The notes under the pieces: model-generated
The model's database searches: none
The model's input: only the letters and a program-made list of their open reading frames with translations
Told to the model about the DNA's origin: nothing
Assembly: GCA_024679065.1 (NCBI GenBank)
Contig: JAGIQG010000009.1
Span: 100,068,001 to 100,132,000, forward strand
DNA from: Sphyrna mokarran
Lineage: Eukaryota
DNA length: 64,000 nt
Direction of reading: 5' to 3'
Translations under genes and position numbers: made by a program
In this document: piece after piece, positions 6,871-38,736 of the stretch
Layout of the letters: the number at the start of each line of letters is the position of its first letter
Position numbering within the stretch: position 1 is the stretch's first letter

Positions 6871-6900
6871 CTTGTAAAGCATTTGCAAGTTTTTGCGTTG
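6871..6900 (-). CDS. Candidate 30-nt microexon, phase-1 peptide ATQKLANALQ
   Basis: Minus strand: T-rich tract ...ctttatAG|CAACGCAAAAACTTGCAAATGCTTTACAAG|GTAAAT; strong acceptor and donor, length a multiple of 3. Confidence 0.6.
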
Positions 6901-7744
6901 CTATAAAGAAAAAAAGTCAAGTTATTTAGTTATCTAAATTCAAGCAAAGTGTTATTGTATCGATCGAAAGCTTCCTTTCATCAGATTGCATTCCTCATTT
7001 TTCATATGCCTCTGTTAGGGAATGCCTGAATGAGTTTGTAGTCACAATAGACCGCTTTGGAATAAACTTCGGTCTTCACGTCATCAGTTGCTCTCTACTT
7101 CTCGAATTCGGAGATTAATCATATACAGAATTGAAACGAATTCTGAGAAACTACTTTGCAAATCAGAATATGCTAAGTCATTACAAAATTAGTTATCATT
7201 CCAGTTATCCAGATTCAAGATACAACAGATGCTGGAAATTGACGTGTGAAAAAAAATGTTTGAAATACTCAACATTCTGCCTAGAAATGTTAACACCGTA
7301 TAATTGCTGAGACGATGCTTGGCCTGCTTTGTTTTGCACACATCACAACTTTACTTATTATTTTGGAACTGATTCTGATGTGGCTACATGAAATGTAGCT
7401 TATGAAGTTTGCAGGTGAATGGGCAGATTTATAGAGCAACCTGTAACCTCTGGCTTTCCTATTCTGGAAAATACAAAGGGGAGAGCCATAATTTATAACA
7501 TCAACCATTTTTGGGACGTGCAATCGTACATCAAATAAGCTTCAACCTGGAAAGATGCAAATTGCGTAATCGATTTTAAAGTCACGAAACGTCTCATTGC
7601 CGGAATTTTTCCTTTGCATTGTATGGAACGAGTTTTACGATATTTCCAATTTTCCAATGAATATGAGGTAGATTGTGCAAGTTCCAAACTATTCGATAGT
7701 GGAAAAAAATGTATTTCTGGGCAAGAAACATTAAGTCAGACTGA

Positions 7745-8110
7745 TTTTTTTTTTGCTACTGATATGTACGGGGACCTGTGAATCCTTGTGTCATGGGCGG
7801 TGCTGGTAGGTCAGAATTCCATTGTTCATCCCAGATTGTTCTTAAGAAGTTGATGGCGAGCTTGAATCCCTGCAGCCCATGTGCTTTGGGTTGACCCGCA
7901 CCTTTAAGGAGGACATTGCAGGATTTTGACCAAGAGACTATGAAGGAATGATAATATATTTTCATGTTAGGATGGTGAGTGCCTTGGGCGGAGCTGTGCA
8001 GTGGTGGTATTCCTATTTATCTGTCGCCCTTGGCCTTCGGGATGGAAGTGGTCATTAGTTTGGAAGGTGCTGTCTAATGATCTTTGGTGAATTGCTGCAG
8101 TACCTTCAGT
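7745..8110 (-). mobile_element. Decayed 3' end of CR1/L2-group LINE (same family as 790-1937)
   Basis: Poly-T end followed by ggatggaagtggtc...tttggaaggtgctgtc...ggtgaattgctgcagt, antisense to the family 3' region. Confidence 0.65.
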
Positions 8111-9467
8111 GGATATTTTATGTTCAACTTTCAGCCTTCCTTAATTGACTATCATATCAGCCTCTTCAATATCTCGCAGTGAATCCCACTTGCATTCCAG
8201 ACGTTCTGCTGACTATTAAGCACAATTTCACCAAGACCTAGACAACATAATATGGTGCAGTGCACCCATACCTTTCTCCTAAGCAAACTAACCACGAACA
8301 CCACCCTGAAACAAGTCGACTCTGTACCAATCACCAAACAAATATGTGGCCGTGAACATAATAACTAGTCGCTATCCAGTTGGTAGATCAGAATCATCCC
8401 AATGGGACGATATACATAACAGCCAATTGTCGAAGGGCAGACTATTCTCCAGATCAGCAAACTGCAATCCAATGTTTTATCTAATCTGCAAGCATACGTT
8501 ACTACATCAGAAACACAGATACTTGTGGCCTCAAACGAATCATTTGTTAACGGGAATAGATAATCTATCTAGCAGATTACGGAGGCTGACTGACACAGAT
8601 ATGTTAGACACAATACCCCTTGCAAACTACCAACACGTAACGGAAATGCACCACACAAATTTCACAGTTGTTCTGCAGATACAAACAGCTATCTCTGTCT
8701 GACCCGGCATACACTCCTCCAGCCGATTGACATCAACCTTATCCGTGCACCCTTCAGAAAATCTCGTTCGGCTTCCTTCTTCACTTTTCTGTCCATACTG
8801 CAACAGCCTAATAGCCATCTACAAAAAAAATGCTTACAAAAATATCAACTTCACCAATAATCCAACTCAAACATATGCCCACATACAATCCTCTTAAACT
8901 ATCCACTATCTTACCACCGGTGCATTTGCCTGTCTCATTGTCTTACGCATCTTATCCAACTGTCAACCAGTCCCCCCATGTATTGCCTGTGGACCCTCCC
9001 CCCAAAAAAACACATAACTGAACAGCATTTTCTAACTACATAGTAACCAAACTCATACATGTATCCATAAAATTATCTACTTACTTTCGCACGCACCGAT
9101 TTACACAATTCTCCATTGGTCTACGTAAGCCATCAATATTCACTCAAATGATCTGATCCACACACCGCTAATCCGTATTACAATCCTCTACTTTTCGGAG
9201 ACAAGATGCACCACACTCACTTACCTAACAATCATTGATATATCTCATTCAATTTCCCAGCCTTCTACTCAAATGCAGCGAACGATTCGTGTAACAATTG
9301 GGCTACATCAACCACTTTTCCAATTGGTGGTTCAAACACCTGTCCTGCCCCTCTGATGTGTGCATGTCATTCTTCTATCTATAATCCAATCTGCACACAC
9401 ATAGAACATTCCAACCACTCATCTACACGTCTTATCTATTTACATAATTCCACCTAGCTACTCGAAG

Positions 9468-9786
9468 TGGTCGGACAATGGTTAGCACTGCTGCCTCACA
9501 GCGCCGGGGGCCCGGATTTGATTCCGGGTTTCCGTCAGTACCTGTGTGGACTTTGCATATTCTGCCTGTGTCTGTGTGGGTTTCCTCCAGGCGCCCTTGT
9601 TCCTTCCACAATCGAAACATTTGTATGTTATATGGATTGTCGATGCTAAAATGCACTTTAGTGTCAGGGACAAGCTATGTAAGTGTTTGTGTTTACAGAG
9701 GTAGGAGCTGCGTGGGATTGTGGTGGGTGCAGACTCAATGGGCCGTATGGCCTCTATCAGCACTGCAAGAGACTATGATTCTATTA
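9468..9786 (+). mobile_element. HE1-type V-SINE (tRNA-derived)
   Basis: tRNA-like head tggttagcactgctgcctcacagc...gattcc; V-domain tgtgtggactttgcatattct...tgggtttcctcc; CR1-like tail tgggccgtatggcct...gcactg...attctatt. Confidence 0.9.
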
Positions 9787-12218
9787 TACTCAATATCATG
9801 CCGAATCAGTCCATCGACATGCGATATTTCTAACCAACCATGACCTACGAAAACAACACCCCTCTCACTCGTATCATTAAGCCTACCTGTCCATTTACCT
9901 ATCCCCTTCATTCCAGCAGTAACAATCACCTTTCCATCTGTGATTCTCAACTATTTACATGCTTACTCGATCACACGTTTAAAATGAGAACCTAACCCAG
10001 CTTTAGGCACAGATCAATGAACGCCATAGCTATGCACTTCAACCCTGATCCAGCTCATTTTTGGATTTGACACTTTGTCAACACAATGACCCATCTATTC
10101 ATCACTCCCATGTATCCAGTTTTTAGGTTTTACCCAGCTTTCGCGCTCACCTCCCACGCTAATGTTATAATCTTCAGTAATTCATCGCGTCAATGATTCA
10201 CTCGTTTGATTTGCAAAGCATGAACTCTTAAACCACTTTGAACATTGGAGCTGGTGCAGGCAAATCTGACCTGTCTCCTCATACACCAACTCTACACTGC
10301 CCATCGATCTTCAGTACGAGGCTCTAAGCTTCCCATGTAAATTTCATGGCTATTTGGCATTTACTTGCAGTATTATGAATAGCTTGGAGATTTTTTTAAA
10401 TCTTTACGGGAAATGCAAATTTGCCGAACTTGTCCGCTAATCAAACCATGCAAGCTTATGTGTTTTGCAGAGAAGTTCGCTTGCTCCCATACATTGTGCT
10501 ATTTATGTGGAATGATGTTTGGCTAACCTCACAAAATTAATGAATACAATTCAAAGAATGAAAGCATTTCAAACACAATTCACATTTAAGTAGTATAACT
10601 GTTAAGCGTCAATTGATTCAATTTTTTACTGTGATCATTGATGCTTACTTTTCCTACCTGAATTTTTCAGTGCCTCCTGCAATTCCGCCAACTCTGAATA
10701 ACAAATCGACACCCTATTTAATTAATTGTATGTTAGCAAGATTTTGATTCTCTGCTCAAGACTTATCAACAAATCAAACATTTTTTTGGGGAAGTAGACT
10801 CGTCAAATTGAGGTGGCATATCACCTAGGACATATAGGTGAAAACATTTAAGTTCATAACGTGACAAAAAAGAAAACAAAACATAACAGCTGCCCGATTT
10901 TTAATGGGAACTCATCAAGTTGCGATATTACATCAGTTTGCGTCGAGCGAAAATCAAATGTGATACAGTCCACTGTTCTGGTGTGACGCTCAAATTAGGA
11001 TCCTCACCGGGCAAATATCAAAACGTGAATTATGAAACACTTTCGCCAGTAATACTTTTGACTTGTGTTGCCATACAAAAGATAGACTTCACACAATACA
11101 TTTTGTATTGCAGATATGGAGCCTTATTTGCTAACAAGTGGATAGGTAATTGATAAGTTACTGTATCTGCTGTGATAGTAGAATCGAATCACACCACGAT
11201 CATTCATGAGCATAATTCGATCAAAGGCAAAGGAACACTTCAAAGACGTGACCTCTATAACATCGACGAATTTGTAAAATCGCTGTCATTATTATCATTT
11301 GGTTCCTTAATGCATTTAGAGTTGGAAAAGGCCTTCAAGATCGCGTCGAAGCCAGAATGGTACTTTCGGGTCAACAGCAATATTATTAAGAATTATTATT
11401 CTCGGAAATGCCCCAGCTAATCACCGACTTGTGCAAATAATCTGTAGAAATAAAACAATTACACATGCGACATCTAATAACATATAATGGTGTTGTGCCA
11501 AAAATTATCACGCAGCTTAGTCAAGCATCAGCATGTCGTATTTGTACTAACATAATGGCACCAAATATCCTCAGTTCCACCCCCGTCCACATTAACTGAC
11601 ATTTTTGTTTTAATTCTGTAGAACACTTAGTTTCGCTATGATAGTTAACCCCGTGTTCAGAATTGGCAGTTGTGACTCTGGATTCTCATTTTTGCATGGT
11701 GGCTTCTGCTACATTTGCTGTAAAACCGGACAGTTGGGAGAAAAAAAAGAACCTATTCACTGGTCTCCATTTGCTTTTGCCCTCTTCTCGACAAGTAAAG
11801 CGATTCTTGTTTGGCTCGCCTTTTCCACTTTATTCCAAAATGTCGAACTCCATAGCTAATGGTATCAGGGATTGCATCTCCGTTCTTAGTGTCATTATTC
11901 ACCATTCACTTTCTACTTACAGGTAGCATTCTGTGGAACCAGCTCTCAAGAAGGGGCATCCTGTTTCGAACGGTTATCTCGATTCTATTTCTACGGAAGC
12001 TCTCAGACCTGCTTATATTTTCCAGCATATTATGTTTTGTTTTCCTTCCGAACGATGGTATCGTTAGAATCGTATTGAATATACATCACTCACAGATTTG
12101 AACATCCTCTATCATTTGCAATTTATTAGGATATCAAATCTCTGATACTGGCCCAAATGAAAATTATGTTGACTGCTCTGCATCGTTATCCAAACGAATT
12201 GCTGATGCGTTATTATAC

Positions 12219-12245
12219 CTGCGTCTCGTTCATCAATTTCTGCCT
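12219..12245 (-). CDS. Candidate 27-nt microexon, phase-1 peptide EAEIDERDA
   Basis: Minus strand: ttttttatttattttttgctcatAG|AGGCAGAAATTGATGAACGAGACGCAG|GTATAA; long T tract, purine-rich exon, 27 nt. Confidence 0.65.
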
Positions 12246-12529
12246 CTATGAGCAAAAAATAAATAAAAAATACCAAATTTTACAATCGAAATTCAACAAT
12301 TATACTTCGTTATAGTGCGAATTAAAAAAATGAGGTGGCTTGTAGCCTAGAACATACAGATAAAAACATTCAAGCTGATAACGTGCACTTCTTTCTTATT
12401 GGAAATATACTCAAAGGAATATATTAGCAACAGGAGTCCAAGATGCCATGGATATTGCTCTAGCATTCATTATTTTCTTAGTTGATCATTAATGTCAATC
12501 ACATGATCAACAATACCAACTCTCCACCC

Positions 12530-13015
12530 CCAGCCAATTTTCTTCATTCTCCTTGACCCTATATATATTATGGCATCATCAAAACGTACAACATTTTGCG
12601 TTTAAATGCTTTTTTGTGGTAACAAATTCCTCAGCCTGACGAAACTCTATTTGAAGACATTTCCCGCTGCCCTAAGAGGTCTATATGCATGCTCAGGTTC
12701 TGGACAATCCAACATATCAACGTCTTTTTGGATCAATCCTGTCAAGACATTCTCAAGAGTTGTAGATTATTAAAAAGTCTCCTTTCATTCTCCTGAACTC
12801 CAGGGAATAACATTCTAACTGACTCAATGTCTCCCCATGTTTCATTCTGCCATCTCAGAAAACAATCCAGTAAACGTGCTCTGCAACCCATGTACAGCAA
12901 GCGCATGGTTCCTCAGATGAGGAAGCCATACCTCTGCACAGTACTCCAGGTGTGGATTAAGGCATCAAGGCATCTCTGTTTCTGCTTTCGTATCTTCTCG
13001 TAATGAGTGCCAACA
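12530..13015 (-). mobile_element. Heavily decayed CR1 3' fragment
   Basis: Remnants cagtactccaggtgtgg (PHLEYC) and tcctgaactccagggaata, colinear with the C-terminal region of the young CR1. Confidence 0.6.
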
Positions 13016-13789
13016 TATAAATGTCGCGCTTCCTGATGATCCAACCGGAAACATCGTCACTTTGGGTCGAGTGACAATGGCGTAAGCGACTGGCCGAGAA
13101 GTGGTAATATGAATGTAATTGCGCCTCTGTCGCCGTTAGAGTCCAATTACACTCAGAAGGTTCGGGAACTGATATTAAATCCGTTCATGCGCGGAAATAT
13201 GGTCTCCAGTAGCTCTAGTCCAATTAGCTGTGTGGAATTTCCTGCTTCTATAACACAGTGATTCACGCCTTTCTGCAGGTACCATCTGGGTGTCATCTCT
13301 ATGGGCACCGAGTGATGGTGCTTAAATGACTCGCTGATGATATTGAGCGGGTGCAAACATGCCCCCTAAGAAAACTGCCACCAGGAGACTGCCAGCAATT
13401 ATAGTGATATTGTTAATTTAATGTGATGTCATTGAGAAGTGGCAGAAGTTTCTTAGCTGTGGCGATCTTGACTTTCTAACCAACAGCAAGTCGTGCCAGG
13501 CTAGTGGTCCCACACTGATTCAAGTAGGCTACAACGTGGCAGACCTGATTATGTACTGGATATACGACTGGCCGAGAATTACCAAACAGACTCCTGGAAT
13601 TCAAATCCGTTTTGATATTTTAAAGAAAAACACATGACAGATGGTGTATGCTATTTGTTCCGAGAGTAGTTGGTGACACACATTCAACCATCGAAAATGT
13701 GTGTCGCACCGATCAAGGCCCAGGACCAGGAATTTTCGACTCCCTCGATCGGTCAAAGTAGAAAATCGATTATTCTAAGACCAGGGCCC

Positions 13790-14690
13790 GGTGTGAAGAA
13801 ACGAATGGACGTAGGCTTGGAATGGCCAGTCTGCAACATTCGGTCGAGGACAGTTCTTTCAACTGGAAGATCAGCAAGTTTCGGGCGGACCAAAGTGCGT
13901 CCTTTACCGAGTTGATGATCTTCCAGCAGCAGTTCATATTTGTCTCGGTATTCGTATCCGGAAACAGCCCGTAGAGCACAGAATCCTGCGTCACCGAGCT
14001 GCTCAGGACGAACCTCGACAAATACCACCTCATCTCACTCCAGACCTTCTTTGTAAAGGCACATTCCACAAGGAGGTGTGCGACCGTCTCATCAGCCCCG
14101 CAGCCGCTTCTAGGGCAGATTGCGGTGCTGTTCAGACCTCGAGCGTGCAGGAAGGATCTGACGGAGAGTGCCCTTCTCACCACCAGCCAAGCCAGATCTT
14201 GATGCTTGTTTGTAAGTTCTGGTGATGAGGCGTTCTGCCAAATGTTACTGACTGTCTGCTCAGGGAACCATTCGACAGGATCCGCCACCTCCTTTTCTCT
14301 CAGGGCCGCAAAGACGTTACGCGTTAACCACTGCTTAATCGCCATGTGATCAAAGATGTGTTTGCGGAAAAAAATCTCCACGAAGGATAGGTACGGCCTG
14401 GACTGTGGTACGGTCCAACGACTCGGAGCGTTCCGCGGCAGTGTGGCCAGTCCTATCCTTCGCAACACTCGGGACAGGAAGAACCTCAAGAAGTAGTCGC
14501 ACTTGTTTTTATTGTACCGAAGATCTACGCACAGTTTATGCAGCCACACACGAGGGTGGTCATCAGGATGAGGGCAGCGTTCGGAACATTTTTTCCCTCC
14601 GTTCCCTGGAGATTTGTGCATAGCGTCCTCCGGACGCGATCCTTCTTTGATCTCCAGATAAATTTAAAGATATCCTGCGTCCATCTTGGT
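13790..14690 (-). mobile_element. L1-group (Tx1-like) non-LTR retrotransposon ORF2 C-terminal fragment
   Basis: ORF 13770-14621 contains WQNASSPELTNKHQDLAWLVVRRAL and a CCHC knuckle CPRSGC-x4-TVAHLLVEC (zf-RVT type), followed by LWSARN. Confidence 0.85.
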
Positions 14691-14799
14691 AGAGAATGTT
14701 AAAGTGGATGAGTGCAACTAGGACACAGTCAACACACTTATCATCATGCAGTACAAAACATCCCGTTGTTTTGCTACCTATTCCGCAAGCGTTCGTTCA

Positions 14800-15115
14800 C
14801 TCCACCATGGAAAATTGAGGCAGCCATGTGTCACATCTACATAGCTGCACTGCAGGATGTCTTCAACTTCCCTTGGTGGCACCTTCCAAACTTACGACTT
14901 CTATCATCTTGACAGTCAGGAGTGAAAAATAGTTGCAAAGAGCAACAATGGGATGTTCTCTCTCAGTCTGTCACTATATTGACTGAGAATTGTATTGCCT
15001 TTCCTTCAGAATGATTGTATTTACATGCAGCAATTCCACCATAACTATATTGTCAGTGCGCTTGCTCCTAAGTTACCTTCAAATTCTGAGTGCAGTTCAC
15101 CGTGGCAGTAGTATG
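14800..15115 (+). mobile_element. Decayed CR1/L2-group LINE 3' fragment
   Basis: catctacatagctgcactgcag...gcaccttccaaac...ctatcatct, homologous to ~1530-1860 and antisense to 7745-8110. Confidence 0.55.
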
Positions 15116-15155
15116 CACAACATTTAAGGGGTAACGAGTGCTGCTTCGGCTACCA

Positions 15156-15181
15156 ACACACACACACACACACACACACAC
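15156..15181 (+). repeat. (AC)n microsatellite
   Basis: Read directly from the sequence. Confidence 0.95.
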
Positions 15182-17379
15182 CCTCGATAGCTTCAGACTC
15201 TAGCCATCCTTCTTTTTGTTTCATAAATTCAGTGTTCACAAATGCACAACCTTATCTGGCAGATAGTTCCGCAGATTCACACACCTAAGAGAGAAATATT
15301 GCTTCTCGCCTCACTCCTAAATGGCTAATATTTTACATGAGAATGTTCCGCAAAGGAAACTAAGTGCCCAAAAATTAGAAAACGAGAGGTTTTTCTGCCC
15401 GTCTTTTGAACGTACGACATGCAACGAAGCCCTCTCTTCCAGAGACTTCATCAGAGAGATTAACTCCGGTAAATTTATTAACAATGTACTAATGACCATG
15501 GAATCTTTGGCGATTGTCGAAAAAAAATCACTAACATCTTTTAGGAAAGAAAGTCTGAAGTGGCTTCCTAGTCCGGCCTATGTGTGACTTTAGAGCAGCA
15601 GAAATGTGTTTGATTCTGAAATACCCACCAATGCCAATGAGAGGAGAGGGTGTTGGGGGGAAAATACATATCCTGTCAATGAGTAAATCATATTGTGAGT
15701 CGGGGCCTTATCCCGTAAAAAAGAGGTCGGCAGCATAATGCTAAGTACGCAAATGGGCTTGTGCCGGTCTGTCATCGCTAGCATACCAATCAACTCACCC
15801 CACCCCACGCTTTCCCCCGGAATAGCCAGTTCAATCAATAAGACAACATTCCACGTCTCACCACGCAATCCATCCTGTCCGAGTCGAGCTAGAGGGTCCT
15901 CATTGATATCTCCGGTCTTGCTATTCTAATGGTGATGCGCAGCGGCCCAGTGAAGCCCCCTCAAATGTTTCCTGGCCTATCTTGAAGCCACAGCCGTGAG
16001 CGGCGAGGAGTGGGTGATGGCAGCCCAATGGCGTGGTACAAACCTCTATTACCTTTCTTTTCAATAGCCACAGTATCATGATTGGCGTTTTCTACATTCC
16101 TGTACATCAAACATCGCGTTCTGAGTCATACTGGAACTCTTTCTTTCCTATTTTGAGATATGTCATGCGTCTTTCGTCCGCTCTATGGTGCCTTCTGACC
16201 CTGTGCATTGTCTTGTTTGTTTGGCAAGTATGTGTGGAATACTACAGTTTTATTGAGAACGTTCTTTCAAAATACACGAACTGTTCTTGTCTTTCAGATT
16301 TGACATGTGTTTCCTAAGTTTAATTTTATGCACCCTGTGTGTCTTCTGAGGTCGAAAAAATGATTTCTCCCATCTAAAGATCTCCACAGACTGACGAGTA
16401 AATATTTAAAACGAAACAAAAACGTAGTAAAGTCCAAATGCAGAGAAAAGCCAATCAACTTTACCTAAGACGGAAGTTTCTTTTTTTCCCAATAGCCAGA
16501 GTCAGCATCGTGATATGGTCAGCAATAATTTACTGTCCTGATTTGATTCCCGCGGTCACCCTTAAGCGATCTGAAATGGACAGTCAAAGTTCAGGTGTCG
16601 AGAACTGGGTGGAGTTGCAAGGAGAAATTTTGATATCAGCTCCCTACAATCTCCTCCGTCTTTTCGTTTCCCTCTTCATCTTATCGTTTCCGAGCAATGA
16701 CATATCGGCAATATCTGCTCAGCTGCTTTACAGTGCGAAACATCTTCTGATTTTATTGATTTGCGGAAACCTCCTCATCCTCCTGCATTCATTTTATGTT
16801 CCAGTGTGCATAAAAATCGAATTGATTGTTCAACCCACTACAGTGTTTCATACTGGCAGCAGAGTGCATGGTTACACAGCACTTATCTGAATGCATTTCC
16901 GAAGCCAGCAAATCACATATCGCCATGCATGAAACTGAATAAAACGTGTACTGTCATAGTTCTAACAGAGTTTTGATGAAATGTTTCAATTTTCAGACGC
17001 TCTGACAGAAAAAAAAAGCGGATGGGCAATTATATTTAAAAAGTTAAAGCAAATTTAAAACGAATAACTGTTATATCACGTTAAAATATCGACAGTACAA
17101 TAGTATACCACATAATATGAACTGATCTCTCGCAGCTTTTAATGCACGTGTGTAATTTAATTTCGTCCAGGTTCATCCTAACTTCCAATAGCCATGGGAT
17201 TTCTGATGATATTTGACGTTTCGATAGGTTTGGCAATACATTGGTCAAACTGGTCTGAAACAATTACTTCCTTAATGGTGCCGCACTTTCTCGGGATTTT
17301 ATTCATAGAAGGTGTTGTGAATCACAAAGTTAGATTAGAGGAAGGATAATAAATTCATTGAAAAATAGAGTCATATAAT

Positions 17380-17610
17380 CCATATAGTGCATAAGCAGGG
17401 TGTTGTTTCATCCAGTCTGCACCGACAACAATCCACCATTGTCTTATCCTCATGATCTTACATATTTATCCTACTAATCCGTTCAGACTAACGGAGCATT
17501 TACCATGCCGAAACAACATAGCATGCACATTTTTGGACAGTGGGAGGAAATCACAGCTCCCAGAGGAAAACCACGCAGATTTGCGGACAGCGTGCAAGCT
17601 CCACAAAACA
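17380..17610 (-). mobile_element. HE1-type V-SINE fragment
   Basis: ttggacagtgggaggaaa...gaggaaaaccacgcag...gtgcaagctccaca is the reverse complement of the V-domain; head missing. Confidence 0.75.
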
Positions 17611-19536
17611 TTACATAATTGCATGACATAACGTCCCAGTGAAATATTGTGCTAACGTTTGCCTTGTCTATTTTGGTTTTTGTCCTATATGTGTCGTATA
17701 TCAGAAAGTATGCTGTACGAGCGTCAATCAGGTTACATCATTTTTTTTCCTTGTTTTCTATTTAATTTATGCCACACTATAGCAATATAAAGAACATGGC
17801 TGCTGGTAGACGTCGAGTTATTCCAAATGCGGAAAAGAAGAATTGAAAAAAAATACAGTCAATTGAAATTAAAATGTAATAAAATGCGAGGGAAGATTGA
17901 TGTTTCAGGCTTTGTGCTATGAATTTTACATAAACAAGTGTCTATTCCATTACAAACTTAACAACAATACGTTACATTAGAGATATATTTACTTGAAATA
18001 ATGCCCGCAGGAATATTTAGGCTTAACTAGGCTTATCCAGTTCTTTCTCCATTTAGTTAATTGTTTTCAGAGATATGAGTTTTCAGAAACGTGCATGAAG
18101 TCGCATAAGTGGATTGAACAAATTATAAACACAATCTAGAGTCAGTTAACACGCCCGAGAGACAATTCTCATTGAGGTTACTTCTGAGACAAACAAATCC
18201 GTTTTCTTTTTCTAGGGCGCACTTTCATTAGAGGCACGACTTTCTGGGGGGCGGGGGGGAATCAAACTTTCGAACTGTTGGCTGAGATTTCACAAAGGGA
18301 CAGACACATGGATTAAATAGTATCATATGCTGTTTTTCCCCTTTGATCTTCAATTATCAGATGAAGCACCTTGTGAAGACGACATTTATTACTTTGAATT
18401 AGAATTTTAGATTGTAACTGCAACGTTCACAAATTCCTCGCTCTGTAACCCTCCAAAACGTATTCAAAGCCATTTTATTGCATTCCTCAATGTTATCAAC
18501 ATCAAAGTGCTGCCGTCATCTTTAAGTCACTTTGATCATTTTACCTTCAGTAAGATAAAACACGAACACATTCAAATGACTTTTCGAGCGACGTGTTCCC
18601 TAATGTGCTTCACTATGTCATCCATTGTATTACAATGTATAGTGGATAACACGTTTCCACAGTGATTAGAACGGTTGCCTCGTAGGGAGATGTACTCAGT
18701 TCCATTCCCGTCCTATGTCACTGCTTGTGCACAGTTTCGGCATTTTCCTCGTGTCTGAGTCGGCAAAATTATTGGTTCGATGGATTGTTCAGGCTGAAAA
18801 TTCGCTCTTTATATAAGAGCAGGCGCCGTAGTGTGGCAATTAGGGGATTATCAAAATAATTTTATTGTAGTGGTAATTAAAGACGACTTGTGATACAAAT
18901 AAATAAAATAAAATACGCTCCATCTCTAGTTTACGAGTAGTTATTGTATTAGTGCTAACATTATACGAAAATTTCCAGAAACTCCGAAATCCTGCCGTCA
19001 GCAGACTCTGCAGACTCCTGAAGGACGCTGACGGTGTATTTTTCTTTTTGCCTTGCGGGTTTCGCTGATATTCCAGAAAAAAAGAAAGCGGGAAATAGAT
19101 CACAAATCTCAAGAGGCACATATTTGCTGACCCTCTGACAAATTGTTGAAGATTTTTATGAACTACTGTTTCCCCGTTTCTGTAAGATACTCTGCATCCA
19201 AGTACATTTTGCTGGGTTACACACCACCTTCTTTTATTGTCGGTTGTGCAAAAGCTTCTCCTTGTTTGCTTTTGCTTAAAGCTAATCATACACTTGCTGA
19301 AAACAATTTAAATCAATTCCAAAACTTGCACCAATATTAACAGATACATTGCCAAAATGGCACCAACAAAATCTTTTTGTTTGTTTGTTTTTTATTTGAT
19401 GCATTGCTGAGATAATAAAGAATGTGAATACAGAAAAATAATCAAAGCAATTTGGCTATTGACGGTAGAAAATAAGCATGGACAGATAAACGATGGACTC
19501 CAAAATAGCGTCATCATTGCAAAATGAATATTTTAC

Positions 19537-19563
19537 CAAATTCATTCCTTGGCATTTGGTCTT
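19537..19563 (-). CDS. Candidate 27-nt microexon, phase-1 peptide EDQMPRNEF
   Basis: Minus strand: gtatttttcAG|AAGACCAAATGCCAAGGAATGAATTTG|GTAAAA; 27 nt. Confidence 0.55.
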
Positions 19564-24516: not shown

Positions 24517-24543
24517 CTGAACTTATTACTGGCCGCACTCGCT
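24517..24543 (-). CDS. Array microexon, terminal divergent copy (ERVRPVISS)
   Basis: gAG|AGCGAGTGCGGCCAGTAATAAGTTCAG|GTTAAA; positionally homologous, 27 nt, weak acceptor. Confidence 0.35.
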
Positions 24544-25184
24544 CTCCTCAAGCAGACGCGTGAAATCATTACTCCTTTCAAAGCTGTAAGCACGTCACAA
24601 ATCCATAGATATTTCAAATGACTGGCCATTGATTTTGGTCATACCTAAAAGAAAAATCGTATTTTTGGAAAGAAGCGCCCTGTATTCTCAAACTATTATC
24701 ACTTCAACGTTTATTTTAGATTTCCAGAAGCTGCAATATTTTGTTTTTAAATTTCCCTTAGTTGTTTTCGAGTATTGTTGGAGCTACACATATCAACTAT
24801 AACGCTTATACAGCTGTTGTAGTGCATTATATGGTCAAGAACAGCCCCAAGAATGCAATAACTGTGGATTCAGCGATTATATTGCCAATGAATCTCAATG
24901 GATGGAGACTATGTGTTTTCTCTTCTTGAAGCAGACGTTAACCTCGCAATACTGTGGGGCGAGTGTTAATTTTCAATTGTCAGCCAAAGAGAGCAAACTC
25001 AGGAAAACGTGAATTTCCCTTGGTCATGTTGAAAATCTTGATAATTGTGGACGAATACCATCTTGTGTATTGAATATAGCGAATGACTCATTCAACAATA
25101 CAATCGTATTATATAGTAACTGGTAGAGCAGCACTTTGGAGTGATTACAGCCAATTAGCGCAAACATTTGTAGTGGTTCTGTAA

Positions 25185-25625
25185 GGTCAGTCATCTCAGA
25201 AGGAATCCCTCAGGGTAGTTTTCTAGCCCCAACAGCCTTCAGCTGTTTCATGAATGTCCTTCAGATGTTGGGATGTTCGATGAAGATTGTACAACGTTCA
25301 GCAAAATTGGCGACTGCTCAGATACCCAGCCCATGTTCACACGCAACAAGGTCTGAAAAATATCCAACCTGGGACTGACAAGTGGCAAAGCACTTTCACG
25401 CCTCACAATTTCCACCCTTTAGCAATCACCAATGAAAAATACTCTAACCATAGTCCCTAGACTTTCAATGGTATTTCTATCAGTGATTCCCCCACCGCCA
25501 AAATGCTTAGGGTTACCATTAATTAGAAACTCAACTGGCTCACCACATAAACACAGTGACTACAAGAGCAGGTTAGCGGTTGGAAATAGTGCGACGAGTG
25601 ACAGACCGCTCAACTCCACAATGGC
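25185..25625 (+). mobile_element. CR1/L2-group LINE RT fragment inserted in the array
   Basis: ggaatccctcagggtagttttctagcccca ([10 protein letters not shown]-like) and gacaagtggcaa (DKWQ); opposite orientation to the LINE relic inside the units. Confidence 0.8.
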
Positions 25626-26372
25626 AGCTTGAGGCTATTCAGGCTCACTACTTAAAAATAGATTGTCGGTGGATGGTAGATTCATTTTGTGGAGATGCCA
25701 AATGGAGCAAGAAGTGATTAATTTGGGACTTCCGAGACTCTAATCTGCTGTTCTAGCCACATTATTTACATTATTGCACTGTTCAGTTTCTGTTCAGGAT
25801 GGACCACATTTTTTTTTTACCTTGGAGAATTCAGCAATTGTGTTGCAACGTTGTTTCAATGGATGGCGGTTCTGCATTTGGCTTCTTGGATTGAACCATA
25901 ATTCTGTGGCCAAACGCTACTTGTCAATTGTCAGGTCAAACTGGGATTTGTTTTTTTGCTAATACACTTGAAAATCTTGATCATCTCAGACAAATAGGTC
26001 ACTTCGATACAGTTTGTGACCACTCACTCATTGTATTTTGTTTTTTTTTTGTTAGCAGGAATGGTCCAGCAAAACTGCAATAATTATAGTCAACTGAATC
26101 AAGCATTTGTAAATTGAACAGATAGATCAGCTAGACAGAATAACTGGGTTAATCATTCTACAAATCAATTGAAGCTAGCGTCAAGTGCAATTGAAGTCAA
26201 TACCACTAAAAACAAAAATTTTACGAGTCGAGATAGAGGCAAAGTGCAACATATTTTTGTATTGTAGATGCCTTATTTAAAAATAGCATCCAAAATATTA
26301 AGGGTGACATTGAGACACATTGTGTTTAGTAGAAGAAGAGATGTACGCAAAGTTGACCTCTCCATATGTCAC

Positions 26373-26399
26373 CTGATCTTCTGGACATCTGGTCTTGAT
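26373..26399 (-). CDS. Array microexon (xQDQMSRRS)
   Basis: cAG|ATCAAGACCAGATGTCCAGAAGATCAG|GTGACA. Confidence 0.5.
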
Positions 26400-27019
26400 C
26401 TGTTCAAATGGATAAGTACAACTAATTAAACTTTCCAAACCTCTCAACATACGACTGAACCTGAGAAAATTTCATTGACCTTAATCAACATTCGTTTTCT
26501 TTTCAGAAAGCCAAAATCCGCTCAAAATTCTAAAATATTTGCTCTTAATTGAAAAAAAAATACATTTAGAACACTGCTTCCAGTGTAGCCAAAGTTAAAT
26601 TGTTGTCATGGGAATCTAATGAAAAACAATGATGTGAACTTGCAAAACGCTGTTTATTTTCTGCCCCCGAACCCGCCACCATCCCCCCCCCCCTCTCCGT
26701 TTTGTCGGTTAATGGCGTGTGCATTATATTAGGAATCCCTCCTTTTGCTAAAGAAAACATGAAATCATACGCTCTTTGTGCACATTTGTGAGAAGTTGTA
26801 TTTGCAGGCTGTACCAAAAAAAAAATGCTCATCAGAAGGTGAATCTCACCTGCATCTATAAAACCCGGCAGACCATACAATGTACATATAGCCAAGTTAC
26901 TGATAATGAGTGTATTCTATGATTTTGGCACAGCAAAATTAATAGCACGAAAATGTCATTTTTTCTGCATGGGATGAGGTGGGGCATGTAGGGGGCTGAG
27001 GTGGTGGCGGCGGTGGGGT

Positions 27020-27625
27020 GGACGTCTTGAAGGACGCTGAGGAATCCAGTATCTACAGGTCAGCGTTCATGAGTTTGGTAGTTGTTGTTGGAGTTGCTTT
27101 AATGGATTTCAGCAGACTAATCGTATGCACAATAATGCAACGTTCTAAGTTTGGCTTGCGTGCTTGAAGGCATAGGTGGCGCCTAAGGATTGGTGGCAAA
27201 TGGATTGCAGTTGAGCATCAAGTGATCTGCATTCTCTTGGATTGCGTTGAAGTTCTTGAGTGTTGTTGGAGCTGTATCTATTATGACAGCTCGCGGCTTA
27301 ATCCTTAATCGAACGTTGGAGATGGTGAAGAACATTTGGGGACGTGCCGGGTGGAGACAGATTTGTTTCACTGATTAGATAATTACGAAAATCTAATTTG
27401 CTGTTCTCGCCAAAGCATTTATACATCTGACACTGTTAATTTTCTCGTCATGGTCGACCGAATTGATTTTTATAACGAAGCATTCAGTGCCTTCATTGTC
27501 GTTTAATTTAATGGATACGTTTCAGCATTTGTCTTCTTGGATCAGTTTGCTGAAAGACAATTCTGTGCCCGAATGCGTATTGTCAAACGTCAGATCAAAC
27601 CAGGAAAATCAGGAAAACCTGAATT
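27020..27625 (-). mobile_element. Ancient CR1/L2-group LINE relic forming part of the array unit (representative copy)
   Basis: Translations APTTLKNFNAIQENADHL (27183-27371) and WLDKWQVAF (29008-29295) resemble ORF2 C-terminal motifs; the block recurs at the same position in most units. Confidence 0.7.
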
Positions 27626-28060
27626 TGGGGTGATATCATGATAATTTTGCTAGTCTGAGAAAAATACACCAATTTAGTGAAATTCACTGAATGATGCTGA
27701 ATCCTTTCGTTAGCAGAAGTGGTTGTGCATAACTATGCAATGATTACAGCTAACTGAATCAAATATTTGCAAATTGAACAGATAGATCAATTCTGCGATT
27801 CTGTGATTCTGTGAATTACGCTAAATGACTGGGAACAACATTCTAGTCGTAAATGGAATCATGAGTCAAGAAAAAGTTGAAGTCGAGACCATTAAAGGTG
27901 ACGTTTTACGTGGCGGGATTCGACCAAAGTTCATTATGTGTCTGTTTTGCTAATGCTTTAGTTAATCAAACCCTCCAAACTATTAAGCGTGACATTGAGG
28001 AGCATTTAGATTGTTGGAAGAAGATTGGTTCAAAATAAAGTTAACTTCTTGGTATGTTCT

Positions 28061-28087
28061 CTGATCTTATGTCCATCTTGTCTTGAT
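28061..28087 (-). pseudogene. Array microexon copy, donor lost (DQDKMDIRS)
   Basis: cAG|ATCAAGACAAGATGGACATAAGATCAG|AGAACA. Confidence 0.5.
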
Positions 28088-29636
28088 CTGCTCAAATGAA
28101 GAAATCAAGCTAATTAACCGGTACAAAGCTCAAAGAGTCCTACAGAACTATTGAAATTTCAAATGACCTGAAATTGATCTCGATTTCTTCTCAGCAACCG
28201 ACTTCCCTGCTCAAACATCCATCGCTTCGGTTCTTGATTTAAAATTGTATTAGCTGTGGGGTTTTGCTTTCAGTCTTGCCATAATTAAATTGATGTAATG
28301 GGATGGAATTCGGAATCAATGATTTCCATTTGAAGGACAGCTATTTATTTTTTTGGACTTCCGTTTTGTTGTTAATTAACGGTAACTACACATTTGGAAC
28401 AGCTCTTTATTGGAAAAACAAGGGCCAACTTTTTTATACTCCCACATTAAAAGTTTTGGATGCTAACCAAACCAGAAATTAATGCTCATCAGAAGGCAGA
28501 GCTGATCTACATCGATGAAACCCTACAGATCATGCAGCCTTGCATATCTTCAGTACTACTGATAATCGTGTGCAGTTATTCTGATACAGTAAAATTGATG
28601 ACACAACAATATATTTTAACGTCGGGTGGCGTTTCCCAGATCTTCGGGCGACTTGTTTTTGAAGGTTGCCGAGAAATTCCGTTTCCAGGTGACAGCGGCC
28701 ATATGTTTGGTATTTGCCATTGGAGACATTTTGATGAATTTCATCAGACGAATATTGTGAATAATGCTTCATTCGTGTGCGTTTGGCGTATATGCTTGAG
28801 GGGATAGGTAGGGCTTTATATGTTGTTGGCTGAGGGAGTGGTGTTGAACGTAAAAATGCTTGTTTTCCATCAGATGGCTTTGACGATGAGGGTTGTTGGA
28901 GTTACACCTACCATGGCAGGTCGAGGCTATTCAATCATACTCCTTAAGTACACTTTTCAGATGGTGGATAAATTTTTGGGAGGAATTGGATGAGACAAGA
29001 GAGATGATTAATGCGTTAGTGCCTCGAACCTGGCACTCTCCAGTTTCTGGTCGAATTCGACCTTAAAATTTTTAAGAAGGATACATTCAGCGAATACTTT
29101 GCCAACCAATTTCAATTGATGACGGTTATGATTTACTCTTTTCGGAGCAGTTTGTTGTCTCGCAATTCTATGCATGAATGCAACTTGCCACTTGTCAAGC
29201 CAAACAAGGAATGCCAAGAGAACTTGAGATTCCATTGAGCCACTTGAAAATATTGATAAAATAAGACAAACAAATTTAGTCCAGTGTTCACTCACTCGCT
29301 AATTGGATAACGCAAAATCCTACTACTAATGATAATGTTCGAGTATCACTATGTGATAATTGCTGTCATCTAGATCAAACTTTTGCCAAATGAACAGCTG
29401 GACAAATTACAAACAATGACTGAGGACATTAATGTAAGCAAGTGAAAGCAAGTGTAAATAATAATTGAAGCCAATACCGTGAGAATCGAAATTTTATGAG
29501 ACGAAAGAAGATTAGAAAGCAATTGGAATGAGTTTTCTTGTTGACTTGGTTGAGCAAAAGCTCCAAAATATCAAGAGTGGCATTGAGTCCGATTTTGGAA
29601 GAAGAGATACAGAAAGTTGACTTCTTGAAATGTGAC

Positions 29637-29663
29637 TTGATCTTATGTCCATCTTGTCTCGAT
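29637..29663 (-). CDS. Array microexon (DRDKMDIRS)
   Basis: tAG|ATCGAGACAAGATGGACATAAGATCAA|GTCACA; weak donor. Confidence 0.45.
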
Positions 29664-30479
29664 CTACCCAAATGGAAAAGTAAGGCAAACTAATCGTTCG
29701 AAAGATCGTGCCGGCCCATAGAGTTTCTCAGATTTCGAACGGCGTGTCATTGGCCTTCATTCAGTAATTCCCTATATCAGGTAGCGACTTTCCTGCTCAA
29801 AATACTATCACGTTCCCCATCTTAATGCAATATTACTTTATCCGCAGCATTTTGATTTCAGGCTTATCAAAATGAAATTGCTGTAATGGAAATTAATGAT
29901 ATATAATCGAAAAAAAAGTTACTGATTTTCTGGTCCTCCTTCGTTTTCACTATTCATAGCGGTTAACACAAAAGAGGAATCCCTCTTTTGTAATTAGTGG
30001 TCTTCAGAAGGCTTAGGTGATCTACATACTTGAAACCCTACAGGCCATACAGAGTAAGTAAATCCACAGTGCTGTTGGTGAGCGTGCATATGATTTTGAT
30101 AAAACAAAATTAATGTCACACCAATACATTTTAATGTCGGGTGGCATTGTCGAGGAGTTGCTGGGGGTGAGTGACGAGTGGGGGTGGTAGTAGGGGAAAG
30201 GGGGCTACTTGCATTTGCCAATTCTCGAGGAATTCCTTTCTTACAGGACAAGGGTCATGTCATCAAATTCACTATTGGAGTTATTTTGATGGTTTCTAGC
30301 AAAACAGTTTGTGCACATTGCTGCAACGAGTTTGGCCTGAATATTGAGGGGGTAGTGCAATTGGCATTAGTTTTATTGTTACCTTAAGCCATCACTCCAA
30401 ATGAATAAGATTGGCTTAAAGTCAAATAGGCATTATTGAATGAAGAGAGGTACGAAAAAAATGCGTTCTGTTGTGTCAC

Positions 30480-30506
30480 CTGATCTTCTGTCCATTTTGT
30501 CTCGAT
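30480..30506 (-). CDS. Array microexon (DRDKMDRRS)
   Basis: cAG|ATCGAGACAAAATGGACAGAAGATCAG|GTGACA; AAG>AAA is synonymous in phase 1. Confidence 0.55.
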
Positions 30507-32115
30507 CTGCTCAAATGGAGAAAGAAAACAATTTACTCGTACCAAACCTTGAGCCGTCCCCCAGAACTCATTAGATTTCAAATGCCCTGTCATTGACCTT
30601 TATCAGTAATTCGCTTTATTTTCAAGTTGCATCTTTCCTTTTCAAACTTTCATCACTTCTCCTCCGAATTTAAAATTGTCAATATTTTCATTTCACTCTT
30701 GCTGAATGCAATTAATGTAATGGGAAGCTAATTACAATTAATGATTTCCAATTGAAAAATATTTATTTATTACCTGACTGTCTAGTTAAAAGCGTTATGG
30801 TTCAATTATGAATCCCATTTTTAACAATAAAGCATAACTTGAACGCTCTATTATAATCATTCTGAAAAGTAACGTTTGCCAGCTGGAGCAAAATCAATGC
30901 TCATTAGCAATTGGAGGTGATCTGCCTCCATGGAGTCCTGCAGGCCATGCACTGCCCGAAAACACAGATTGTTCATTGTATGCATGTCATTTGAATTGGC
31001 ACAGCAATATTGATGGTTCCGCAATATATTTAAATGTAGCTTGGTTTTGGCCTGGAGTAGGGATGGGGAGGGCCTTAAAGGATGTCGAGGAACTCAGTTT
31101 CTGCAGGTCAGCGTTCATGTGTTTGTAAATTGCTGTTGGAATTGTTGTGGTGAATTTCAGCAGAAGAATATTGTGCACAATAACGCAACAGTGTGCATTT
31201 GGCATGTGTCATTGACGCGGAAGGTAAGGCATTTCACAAGTGTTGATTGAAGGAGTGCGGACTAACGTCAAGCCGTCTGCATTGTATGGGTTGGTGTTGT
31301 GGCTGTTTAGTTTATTTTTGGAGCTATATCTATGAAGACAGGTGAAGGCTCTTCAAGCTTACTCCTGAATTGTACGTTACAGACGGTAGACAACATTTTG
31401 GGCAGATTCCAAATGAAAGAAGAGGCAATTAACTCGTTACCAGCTTCGAAAACTCGAATCCGTTATTTTAGCCGCATTATTTTTTCTTAAGTACTATTCA
31501 ATTTCGATTCAAAGTCGAACGCACGGGTATTTATAACGGATGATTCAGTGACTGTACTGACAGTTGGTCTCTTTGGATGGCTTTTATGTATTTGTCTTCT
31601 TGGATCAGTTTGCTACATCACAATGCTGTGGCCCGAAACCTACTTTTGCATTGGCAGATAAAATCAGTAAAATCAGGAGAACTCGAAGTTTGGTAGATAA
31701 GCTTGAAAATATTGTTATTTGCAGACGGATAACACATTTAGTAGAATGTGAGGCCAATGTGTGGTCGCTCATTGCATAATGCAAAAAAAATATTTTTAGC
31801 GGAAAATGTCCATCCTTACTCTATGACAATTACAACCAAATTAATCAAGCATTTGCAACTTGAACAGATAGATCAATTTCGTGCAATGTCTATGGGCATC
31901 ATTCTCAAATTTAATGAAGGAAGGACCAAGAACAATTGAAGTCAATATAAGTAAAGACGAAACTTTACAAAACGAGATGTGACCAAAGTGCAATAGATGC
32001 TCATTTTGCTGACGACTTAGTTATGCAAACCCACTAAAATATTAAGAATGGTATTGAAGAACACTTAGGTTGTTCGAGAAAGGGAGGTATGGAATTTGAT
32101 TTCTTGAAATATCAC

Positions 32116-32142
32116 CTGATCTTATGTCCATCATGTCTCGAG
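32116..32142 (-). CDS. Array microexon (ARDMMDIRS)
   Basis: cAG|CTCGAGACATGATGGACATAAGATCAG|GTGATA. Confidence 0.55.
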
Positions 32143-33706
32143 CTGCTCAAATGGAAAAGTAAAGTTATGTAATCGATCTAACATCGAAGCATATCACAGT
32201 ACGGATGAGATTTCATATGAGGTGTCATTGACCTTTATCAATAACTCACTTTATTTTCAGGAAGCCAAATTCCTCCTCACGATTCAATCAATTTTCCTAT
32301 TAGTTTAAAATTCCACTATCTGCAGTGTTTTGCTTTCACACATGCCAAAAGAAAATCGATGTAAATGGAAACTATTCGGAATTAATGATTTCCAATTAAA
32401 AGAACGCTCTTTCTTTGCTGCCCTCCTCCATTACGTTGGATGATAGCCCTAACACTGAATTAGAAATTCCTCTTATTGTAAGAAAAGACCATTTACTTTT
32501 TTGCATTAATTCATGAGAAGACCAGAAATTAATGTTCGTCAGAAGGCGGAGGTGATCTGCATCCAGGATGCCCCGCAGACCATTCAATGTACCGATATCG
32601 ACAGAGCTGATGGCAAGCGTGTACCATCATTTTCATACAGCAGCCTTGATGGCACGGCAATATGCTTTACATTCGGGCGATGCTGTCTAGGCCTTGAATG
32701 ACTGGAACTTGAAGGCCGTCAATGATTCACGTTTCCATACGAAAGTAGTCATGTGATTCTAATTTGTTATTGAAGTTGTTTTGATGAATAGGAACAGAAG
32801 GATGTTAAGAACATAGATGCAGGGTGTGCTATTCACTTGTGTGATTACGAGGCCGTGTGTATCCGTTCTATATTGTTGGCTGACAGAAAGAGGTTGAGCA
32901 TCAAGCCGTTTGTTCCCTGTTTGATGACGTTGAAGTTCTTGACTATTGTAGCGAGATCTATCATGACAATTCGCGACTATTGCATCATTCTTTTTAAATT
33001 GTAGGTTATAGATGGTGGACGGATTTTGCGGAGGAGTTGAATCCGATAAGGGTAAGCCCGTTTCACGTTTCTTCAACCTCAAGAATAATAGAGCTGGCAT
33101 TATTCAGTTTCTAGTCAAGGATGTAGATTGCAGTTGGTATGGGGAGGAGGAGTGGATTTAACGATTTTATTGCCAATTAATCTCAATGGAAGAAGGATAT
33201 GCATTTCTCCCTTGGAGCAGTTTATAGCCTCAGAATTCTCTGGCCCGAATTCATGTTTACTTTTCAGGCCAGACGGGAAAATCAGCAGAATGTGAGTTTC
33301 CATTGAGCAGCTTGAATACGTTAACAATCTCAGACAAACACGCTACTTTAGTACAGTGCGTGACCACTTGCTAATTGAATAATGCATAATCCTTTGATTC
33401 GCGATAATGGTCGAGCAGTACGTGTGATAATTACAGTCACCTGAAATAACTATTGCCCAAAAGGTTACTAGCGACACTCCATTACTGAGAACATTCTTCT
33501 ACTAGTAAAAGTAAGGGCGTTTCAAGAATATTGAAGTCAATACATCAAAAATAAAATTTTACGAGATTTTTTTTTAAAACAAGCAAGTGGCATTAGATTT
33601 ATTGTTGGCTCAGTTAAGCAACCATACAAAATATTCAGAATGGCATTGACTCAGATTTAGTTTTTTTGGAAGAAAACTACGAACATTTGGCTTCTTGCTC
33701 TGTTAC

Positions 33707-33733
33707 CTGAACTCATGCCTATGTTGTCCAAAT
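33707..33733 (-). pseudogene. Array microexon copy, acceptor CAG>CTG (DLDNIGMSS); an in-frame GAG 3 nt upstream could rescue it as 30 nt
   Basis: gagcTG|ATTTGGACAACATAGGCATGAGTTCAG|GTAACA. Confidence 0.45.
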
Positions 33734-35393
33734 CAGCTCCTTTTGAGAAGTAAAGCAAAATATTCGCTCCAAAGCTCGACTGTCCCATGGAGTGCATCCT
33801 AGTTCAAATGACGCCTCATTGATTGGCATTCATCAGTAATTTGCTTTCATTTCAGAAAGCCGCATTCTTTTCAAGCATTATTCGCTTCCCCTCTTACGTT
33901 TACATTACATTCCTGTATTGTTTTGATTCATCTTTGCCAGAATTGAAGTGATGCGAAGCTAATAGGAATAACTTATTTCCGATTGTAGGAAAGCTATTGA
34001 TTCCTGGCCCTTTTCCATTTGGTGGTTAATCGCGTTAACGATAAATTAAGCATTCTTTTCTTATCAAAAAAACCCTTTGTATTCATCAATTAGAAGTAGT
34101 GGTTGACGGATAGAGCAGAAATTAATGTTCATTAGAATGTGGATGTTGTCAGCATTCATAAAAGCCTGCAGACCATGCAGTGTCCAAGAATCCAGATTGC
34201 TGTTTGTGTGCGTGTTTCTTGATTTTGGCAGAGCCCAATTGATGACTCAACAATATATTTTACGGCCACTTGGTTTTGGCATAATCCGGGAAGGCAGTAA
34301 GGGAGGGGGAGACGGAAGGGTGGAGAAGGTAGGGTAGAGAGGAGAGAAGGGATTGGAGGGGTGGCACTTGAAGGATATCCAATAATTTAGTTTCTACAGG
34401 TGAACGTTCATCTGTTTGGACGTTGCTATTACAATTGTTTTAATGAATTGTAACAGACGATTCTTTTGCGTGACAGTGTAATTGTGTGGTTTTGTTTGTT
34501 CCGTTTACGGAGAAGGTGGGATATTTCCTGATTGTTTTCTGACGGAATGCTGATCAACGTCAAGCCACCTGTATTGTATTGGTTGGCAGTATAGTTGTTC
34601 TGTGTTGTTGGATCTATATCTATAAATGGGAAGTCGAGGTGTTTCAAGATTACTTTTGGATTCCATATCGTTGAAGATGAACAGCATTTCAGGGTCTTGC
34701 CCGATGGAACTAAACGAGATTACCTCTTTACATGCTTCTTGAAAATAATCCGCTATTTTAATACTTATAAAACAGACACTGTTCAGTTAGTCATGTTCGA
34801 ACCGAAGAACATTTTGCAACGAATCGTTCAACGACTGTATTGCCATTTAATCACGACGGATGGTCTTTACGTAATTTGTGTCCTTGGATGAGTCTGTAGC
34901 ATCGCAATTCTGTGTCCCCAATTCTACTTGCCAACTGTGAGATCAAATCGGTAGAATCAGCAGAACATGAATTCCGTTGTTAAGTTTGAAAATTGTATCA
35001 ATGGCAGACAGGAATACAGATTTAGCATGACTATTAGCTCGTTGAATATTGCAAAATCATATTATTTGAAGAAATGCTCAGCCATAACTGCGCAAAAATT
35101 ACAGTCAAATCCGTCAAGTATTTGTCAATTGAATAGGTGGGTCTTCCACACCCAATGACAGAGAGCGTAATTTTCCAAGTAAATGGAAGCAAGCGTCAAC
35201 AATAATTGAAATCACTACCTCTAAAAAGACAATCTTACGAGACGAGATGAGACCAAAAAGGTAAGTGCAATTAGTATTGTTTTCCCTGTTGCCTTAGTTA
35301 AGCAACAGCTCCAAAATATTAGGAGTTTCTCTGAGTCAGATTGGGATTACTGGAAGAAGACTGATATGGAAAGTTGACTTCTTGAAATGATAC

Positions 35394-35420
35394 CTGATCT
35401 TATGTCCATCTTGTATCGAT
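35394..35420 (-). CDS. Array microexon (DRYKMDIRS)
   Basis: cAG|ATCGATACAAGATGGACATAAGATCAG|GTATCA. Confidence 0.55.
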
Positions 35421-37064: not shown

Positions 37065-37091
37065 CTGATCTTCTGTCCATCTTGTCTCGAT
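37065..37091 (-). CDS. Array microexon (DRDKMDRRS)
   Basis: cAG|ATCGAGACAAGATGGACAGAAGATCAG|GTGACA. Confidence 0.55.
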
Positions 37092-37345
37092 CTGCTCAAA
37101 TAGAGAAGTAAATCGTTACAAAGTTTGAGCCATCCCACAGAACATGCCAAATTTCAAATGACGTGTTACTTGCATTCTTCAGTAATTCGCTTTCTTTCCA
37201 GTCAGCCCCTTTTCTCTTCAGACTTTCGTCACTTCTCTTATTTTAAAGCTCCTTATTCTGCAGTATTTTGATGTCAGTCTTGCCAAAATGAAATTGATGT
37301 GATGTGAAGCTAATAAGAATTATTGAATTTCAATTGAAAGAAAAC

Positions 37346-37387
37346 TAGAACACTACAGCACAAACACGCCCTTCGGCCCACAAGTTG
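37346..37387 (-). mobile_element. ~40-bp CR1 3'-tail-only insertion
   Basis: tagaacactacagcacaaacacgcccttcggcc matches 4655-4689 (tagaacactacagcacagaacaggcccttcggcc); absent from the other units. Confidence 0.8.
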
Positions 37388-38709: not shown

Positions 38710-38736
38710 CTGATCTTATGTCCATCTTATTTCGAT
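38710..38736 (-). CDS. Array microexon (DRNKMDIRS)
   Basis: cAG|ATCGAAATAAGATGGACATAAGATCAG|GTAACA; phases 0 and 2 both contain TAA, only phase 1 is open. Confidence 0.55.

Follow-up and report, generated by a model that had tools for sequence, protein, structure and literature searches.

Strings of small symmetric exons that encode charged peptides are a feature of the luminal regions of triadin and ASPH. In chicken BG genes, as the cited portions of PMC4046983 and PMC8813856 describe them, a signal peptide, an immunoglobulin V (Ig-V) domain and a transmembrane exon go together with 13-36 exons of 21 or 24 nucleotides (nt), and the tail has been characterized as a 'zipper protein' that affects actin-myosin interaction. 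The portion of PMC12841164 drawn on here further places butyrophilin (BTN) genes on the chromosome carrying the major histocompatibility complex (MHC) in some sharks and rays. Here we consider 64,000 nt of the shark Sphyrna mokarran (contig JAGIQG010000009.1, below C1548, positions 100,068,001-100,132,000; this whole stretch is called the window), on the minus strand of which a preliminary description had placed three microexons continuing the frame of an array of 27-nt exons. We propose, at a probability of roughly 0.7, that the segments starting at window positions 12219, 10658 and 6871, and probably the one at 19537, are coding microexons of a single shark gene, at least 572 kb long, whose product is predicted to be a soluble coiled-coil rod that apparently lacks a B30.2 domain. 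The BG and butyrophilin tails, which the preliminary description had listed among known cases, turned out to be the closest analogy, with many small exons encoding heptads, tandem genes and linkage to the MHC. To the extent that PMC4046983 and PMC8813856 are drawn on here, the likeness to chicken BG takes in a long heptad region built from many small exons, tandem genes in the same orientation beside the MHC and a variable number of exons, the BG tail exons also being alternatively spliced. The features in question are the following, given in window coordinates, with scores from the exon-scoring model introduced below.

19537..19563, minus strand: candidate 27-nt phase-1 exon encoding EDQMPRNEF, the first after the array, with a tandem CAG/AAG acceptor (held-out score 10.6)
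12219..12245, minus strand: 27-nt phase-1 exon encoding EAEIDERDA, belonging to the 27-nt class within the downstream 36-27-30 module (held-out score 25.6)
10658..10693, minus strand: 36-nt phase-1 exon encoding ELAELQEALKNS, with five downstream paralogs (held-out score 22.2)
6871..6900, minus strand: 30-nt phase-1 exon encoding ATQKLANALQ, the first of six 30-nt exons (held-out score 17.4)
24517..63421 (the part lying in the window), minus strand: array of 27-nt exons of the type DRDKMDIRS, 21 copies, 17 of them with AG..GT and an open frame, in units of about 1.6 kb

The segments at 19537, 12219 and 6871 are present on the minus strand as first reported, each with an AG, a T-rich tract, a terminal G and a GTA donor, and they have lengths of 27, 27 and 30 nt with open phase-1 frames. 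They had been found by eye, and the danger of chance matches was raised at the time. When the description was coded as a rule and applied to window positions 1-24000, the minus strand returned exactly these three and the plus strand none; against a background of 0.033 matches per 24 kb (two plus-strand matches in the 1.464 Mb around the window) this corresponds to a Poisson p of about 6e-6, and the caveat can be set aside. For training the exon-scoring model, 133 exons were used that lie over 150 kb away and had been picked by our own earlier scoring. In a plus-strand control none of 7,664 candidates reached a score of 14 and two reached 10, one of the two (score 11.6) lying in the window, while in a held-out 300-kb zone 29 minus-strand candidates and no plus-strand candidate scored at least 14. 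The 12219 exon had the top score among the 293 minus-strand candidates of the window. Over the 1.464 Mb the model returned 200 candidates on the minus strand and one on the plus strand, training exons included, which together with the colinearity with catshark proteins described below supports the earlier claim of a real minus-strand host gene, made of small symmetric exons, in which the frame of the array goes on.

A looser scan added the 36-nt exon at 10658-10693, absent from the preliminary description. The three-exon peptide proposed earlier, with its direct junction from 12219 to 6900, would need this exon to be skipped, and since it lies between 12219 and 6871 that junction is probably not the default. 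Together, 12219 and 10658 form the 27+36 pair of the family (21 residues, three heptads), and 12219, 10658 and 6871 represent three classes whose members recur together as a 36-27-30 module (31 residues) until 91 kb before the start of the window. The segments had been called single-copy, which holds for them as DNA but not at the level of class, as 12219 has paralogs in a 27-nt class and 6871 in a 30-nt class, both of which recur downstream of the window. Our 244-exon catalogue contains six 30-nt exons, and all of them lie in this post-array block, the only place where that size class was found; a further 27-nt exon, predicted by the 36-27-30 pattern between 10658 and 6871, was not found. The exon that follows 6871 lies 636 bases outside the window, before its start. 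The segments had also been said to be unrelated to the array, and indeed none of 19537, 12219 and 6871 was matched when 41 array units were used as an nhmmer profile. The exons at 12219, 10658 and 6871 are strong, and we regard them as very probably real; 19537 is weaker.

The start-codon exon of the gene to which we assign these exons (the window gene) lies 412 kb upstream, at C1548:100,480,383, and its last recognised exon precedes the window start by 160 kb, so that the gene spans at least 572 kb. Its start exon belongs to a set of three paralogous ones, each of 39 codons and all on the same strand; the second, at C1548:99,847,415, begins the next paralog, before which the window gene ends, and the third lies at C1548:99,470,440; by sampling, the whole microexon field spans about 99.11 to 101.46 Mb of C1548. 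Counting the start exon, 31 pre-array exons, 12 exons of a 36-nt array, 33 intact exons of the 27-nt array and 34 post-array exons, the window gene comprises about 111 exons and, with every exon included, would encode about 1,100 residues. Its exons are symmetric in phase 1, 18-36 nt long and on one strand; sizes of 9 and 10 codons, as first described, do occur, though the main sizes are 8, 9 and 12 codons. Since every exon is in phase 1 and a multiple of three in length, duplication, skipping or loss of an exon would cause no frameshift. Each of the three ATG exons has its own acceptor, 14 nt upstream, and is a 132-nt symmetric phase-1 exon that is open in frame upstream of the ATG, so that exons further upstream could read through into it.

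The 27-nt array comprises at least 42 copies overall and extends 76 kb beyond the end of the window; 33 of the 42 keep the AG, the GT and an open frame, and the array is interrupted between window positions 47109 and 54787. The window copies at 60497, 56750, 33707 and 28061 have a broken acceptor or donor, one of them together with a stop. A second, younger array of the window gene, 82-110 kb past the window end (C1548 about 100,214,400-100,242,100), consists of 12 copies of a 36-nt phase-1 exon of the type GISENNDNTRYD in 1.85-kb units that are 84-96% identical; its copies have low model scores (0.5-6.8), yet AG, GT and frame are kept.

The order of the exons carries much of the argument for a rod. 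When the 34 post-array exons were read in genomic order, their hydrophobic periodicity at 3.5 residues exceeded that of all 300 shuffles of exon order, and in the case of the 31 pre-array exons 13 of 300 shuffles did as well as the genomic order; the 27-nt array showed no such periodicity (167 of 300 shuffles reached the observed value). Exon order in the window gene was colinear with two of the three paralogs tested (210 against a null maximum of 163, and 157 against 141). In these two comparisons the colinearity extends to both sides, and the arrays with most of the triplet block appear as an insertion peculiar to the window gene. Given colinear flanks around the array insertion and the periodicity of the post-array exons, we infer that 12219, 10658 and 6871, and probably 19537, mark the point where the predicted rod resumes.

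Independent support for the way in which exons were called came from RefSeq protein models of catsharks. A profile of the three start exons found three proteins among 1.84 billion, all from catsharks, and each of them begins at that methionine. In XP_038673008.1 (uncharacterized), the best match to the 5' part of the window gene, 11 of the 23 candidates from this part could be chained in order with 62 of 98 residues identical (score 314, best shuffle 227), and in XP_038671248.1 ('CENP-E-like'), the best match to the next gene, 30 of the 36 candidates of that gene could be chained with 214 of 297 identical (score 1057, best shuffle 474); both chains exceeded all 100 order shuffles, and three cross-gene controls chained 2, 3 and 5 exons. 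These ordered matches support the exon-calling method, though they do not reach the window. Another catshark protein, XP_038672308.1 ('TRIM39-like'), is the best match to the B30.2-ended gene that heads the cluster and joins the same modules to a PRY/SPRY domain. The catshark isoforms XP_038672306/8/9 differ by 9-residue blocks, and tandem repeats of 9 residues stand at their start, which parallels the 27-nt array. The RefSeq names of these catshark proteins are automatic, and Pfam found PRY/SPRY alone in the 'TRIM39-like' protein, with no RING match. A start-exon query in a word-based protein search, which is a weak test, matched none of 141 candidates. In the ESM Atlas the catshark rod gave no feature match, and its structure matches were to generic coiled coils only.

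The paralogs are arranged head-to-tail on one strand, and all 53 MHC class I matches lie on the same contig, at 85.8-95.8 Mb, the nearest about 4.2 Mb away. An intact B30.2 (C1548:101,418,778) terminates the gene that heads the cluster. The next gene downstream of the window gene ends in a frameshifted B30.2 remnant at C1548 about 99,502,800-99,503,400; over 681 nt this remnant shares 65.6% identity with the B30.2 exon of the paralog after that, where a stop stands about 20 codons before the end. For the window gene no B30.2 was found in the 1.464 Mb by tblastn, blastn or a four-sequence profile that did recover the remnant of the next gene, nor did these searches find one for its upstream neighbour, and a genome-wide SPRY search placed none in the 1.464 Mb among the 150 that were scored of 228 candidates. 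Most of those 150 scored matches lie on C1548 at 91.8-112.9 Mb, around the cluster. A B30.2 at C1548:98,912,563 was weighed as a possible end exon but rejected, as the six 10-kb stretches sampled above it contained no microexons.

The preliminary description had also suggested looking beyond the window for a signal-peptide or folded-domain exon, and none was found there for the window gene. The start exon is acidic and has no Pfam match. Two sets of 143 and 70 open reading frames (ORFs), selected from 601 minus-strand non-repeat ORFs of a 1.264-Mb stretch plus a few others, were scanned with Pfam, and the single match above cut-off was zf-RVT; none of the 213 contained a RING or B-box, and four catshark proteins of the family gave only PRY/SPRY at significance. 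Within the window a 297-codon ORF with zf-RVT (13773-14663, minus strand) represents a fragment of a long interspersed nuclear element (LINE) within the intron that separates 19537 from 12245.

On the features tested, the window gene is not a member of BG, BTN or TRIM. As far as the cited portions of PMC4046983 and PMC8813856 describe chicken BG, the window gene differs from it in having about 110 exons, mostly of 27, 36, 24 and 30 nt, spread over more than 570 kb, with two non-heptad arrays, and in that no signal peptide, Ig-V or transmembrane exon was found for it. Like the butyrophilins (BTN/BTNL), some of the paralogs have a heptad region followed by B30.2 and are located on the MHC chromosome; unlike them, they show no IgV/IgC or transmembrane part that we could find, the rod is tens of heptads long and the window gene has no detectable B30.2. 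TRIM proteins differ by their N-terminal RING and B-box, which were not found in the ORFs and catshark proteins scanned. Triadin and ASPH were excluded, since all three matches to PF05279 (Asp-B-Hydro_N) lie on other contigs, C1326 and C1104, and the window gene has a heptad pattern instead and no transmembrane anchor that was found. By its shared modules and exon order the window gene would belong with a set of shark microexon coiled-coil/B30.2 genes, XP_038672308.1 included. We found no description of a microexon coiled-coil gene family in the literature, the gene tables of shark MHC papers lying outside that search.

Several results tell against the explanation put forward here, and those on 19537 bear on a variant of it, in which 12219, 10658 and 6871 are real and 19537 is a chance match or a dying, skipped site. 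This exon was compared with genomic contigs of other species, in which whole introns were covered at about 87%. The acceptor G at 19564 reads A in all three other organisms (the site being covered at about 88%), one of the three also loses the last exonic G, and the exon differs at 5 of 27 bases, as against 20 of 222 listed in the flanks for one organism (Fisher p 0.16). Lack of conservation in related species had been named at the outset as an outcome that would speak against the segments, and 19537 is in fact not better conserved than its flanks in the three species. Moreover, its score is at the level reached by two of the 7,664 plus-strand candidates, and it falls in no repeated exon class. 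It is nevertheless the sole candidate scoring above 2 in the 12 kb from 12245 to the array, three of its five differences in other organisms are synonymous with no indel, and a 24-nt in-frame version of the exon would survive in those organisms by use of an AG three bases further along. On this mixed evidence we lean towards 19537 being a real and used exon, the variant being a serious contender that comes somewhat behind.

The remaining adverse points touch the gene as a whole. Local periodicity is the same with or without the 36-nt exon 10658 (0.142 and 0.141), exon order compared with the adjacent downstream paralog is no better than chance (130.6 against a null mean of 122.4), and comparison of gene ends did not find a terminal exon for the window gene. 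The catshark model of the window gene stops at 270 residues and covers no window exon, no other database protein covering these exons was found, and an array query matched none of 13 scored candidates in a word-based search of the same weak kind. In the 27-nt array nine of the 42 copies are broken, and pairwise ratios of nonsynonymous to synonymous change (dN/dS) are about 1.1 there and 0.43-0.63 in the triplet classes, compared with 0.73 in an intron control, all from small samples, so that purifying selection on the exon copies is weak or unproven. Such figures, like the missing or damaged B30.2 of the window gene and its two downstream neighbours and the poor conservation of 19537, would be expected if the exons were real in origin but the 3' half were decaying, with only the 5' part translated and the arrays and window exons left as relics. 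Against this, all 34 called post-array exons keep AG/GT and an open frame while their introns can no longer be aligned with one another (a partly circular observation, as the calling rule demands these signals), the heptad register persists across exon junctions, and the next gene, whose exons continue, has a catshark model that likewise ends early. Decay of this kind seems to us improbable, if worth keeping in mind.

A poorer account is that the gene is a membrane butyrophilin or BG member with Ig and transmembrane exons that escaped detection, so that the window exons would encode a cytoplasmic tail. The open, acceptor-bearing start-codon exon would allow it, and MHC linkage and tandem layout fit BG. 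However, no Ig family was found among the minus-strand non-repeat ORFs of at least 85 residues that were scanned from the start of the window gene up to the last exon of the previous gene, the three database proteins begin at the start-exon methionine, and the called exon chains, the only sequence so scanned, contain no hydrophobic 19-mer, the highest 19-residue hydropathy being 0.54 and 1.21; we hold this account to be quite improbable. That all the segments are chance AG..GT matches in intron DNA, as their discovery by eye might have suggested, can be dismissed in view of the excess over expectation, the membership in repeated classes and the catshark check of the same calling model.

If the window exons do belong to one large gene for a coiled-coil rod, splicing would join the start exon, the pre-array exons and the two arrays in order, followed by 19537, 12219, 10658 and 6871 and the 36-27-30 modules. 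The two non-heptad arrays in the middle would then form a charged spacer, after which the window exons would resume the heptad rod, and exons could be duplicated, skipped or lost with the frame intact. By analogy with the chicken BG tail, the product may tentatively be viewed as a cytoplasmic oligomerising scaffold, possibly pairing with B30.2-bearing paralogs. A bolder and rather unlikely proposal is that in this soluble rod without B30.2 some 45 intact, skippable cassettes set the length of the spacer between two arms, the window exons being the fixed point from which the second arm restarts; in the most extreme form, in-frame read-through into the symmetric start exons would chain neighbouring genes over more than 1 Mb.

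Should the proposed gene prove true, about 2.3 Mb beside the shark MHC would be a cluster of very large genes that are annotated only as mislabelled fragments, and, like BG and butyrophilin genes, they would assemble a coiled-coil tail out of tiny symmetric exons, minus the membrane receptor part. Such a cluster would offer a handle on the origin of the heptad-plus-B30.2 tail and on protein growth by exon duplication, and the window exons would fix the architecture of a member from which B30.2 has apparently been lost and to which two arrays and a 31-residue module have apparently been added.

Two inverted repeats were also observed in the window. One, at 20161-20429 and 20930-21197, has 269-bp arms that are 98.5% identical and 500 bp apart; the other is a 1.6-kb pair at 4633-6255 and 50128-51747, 96% identical, and is probably one recent mobile element. 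In the next gene, two identical 24-nt exons encoding VGTTEETD lie 1.6 kb apart at C1548 about 99,623,350 and 99,624,980, a recent duplication of a single exon.

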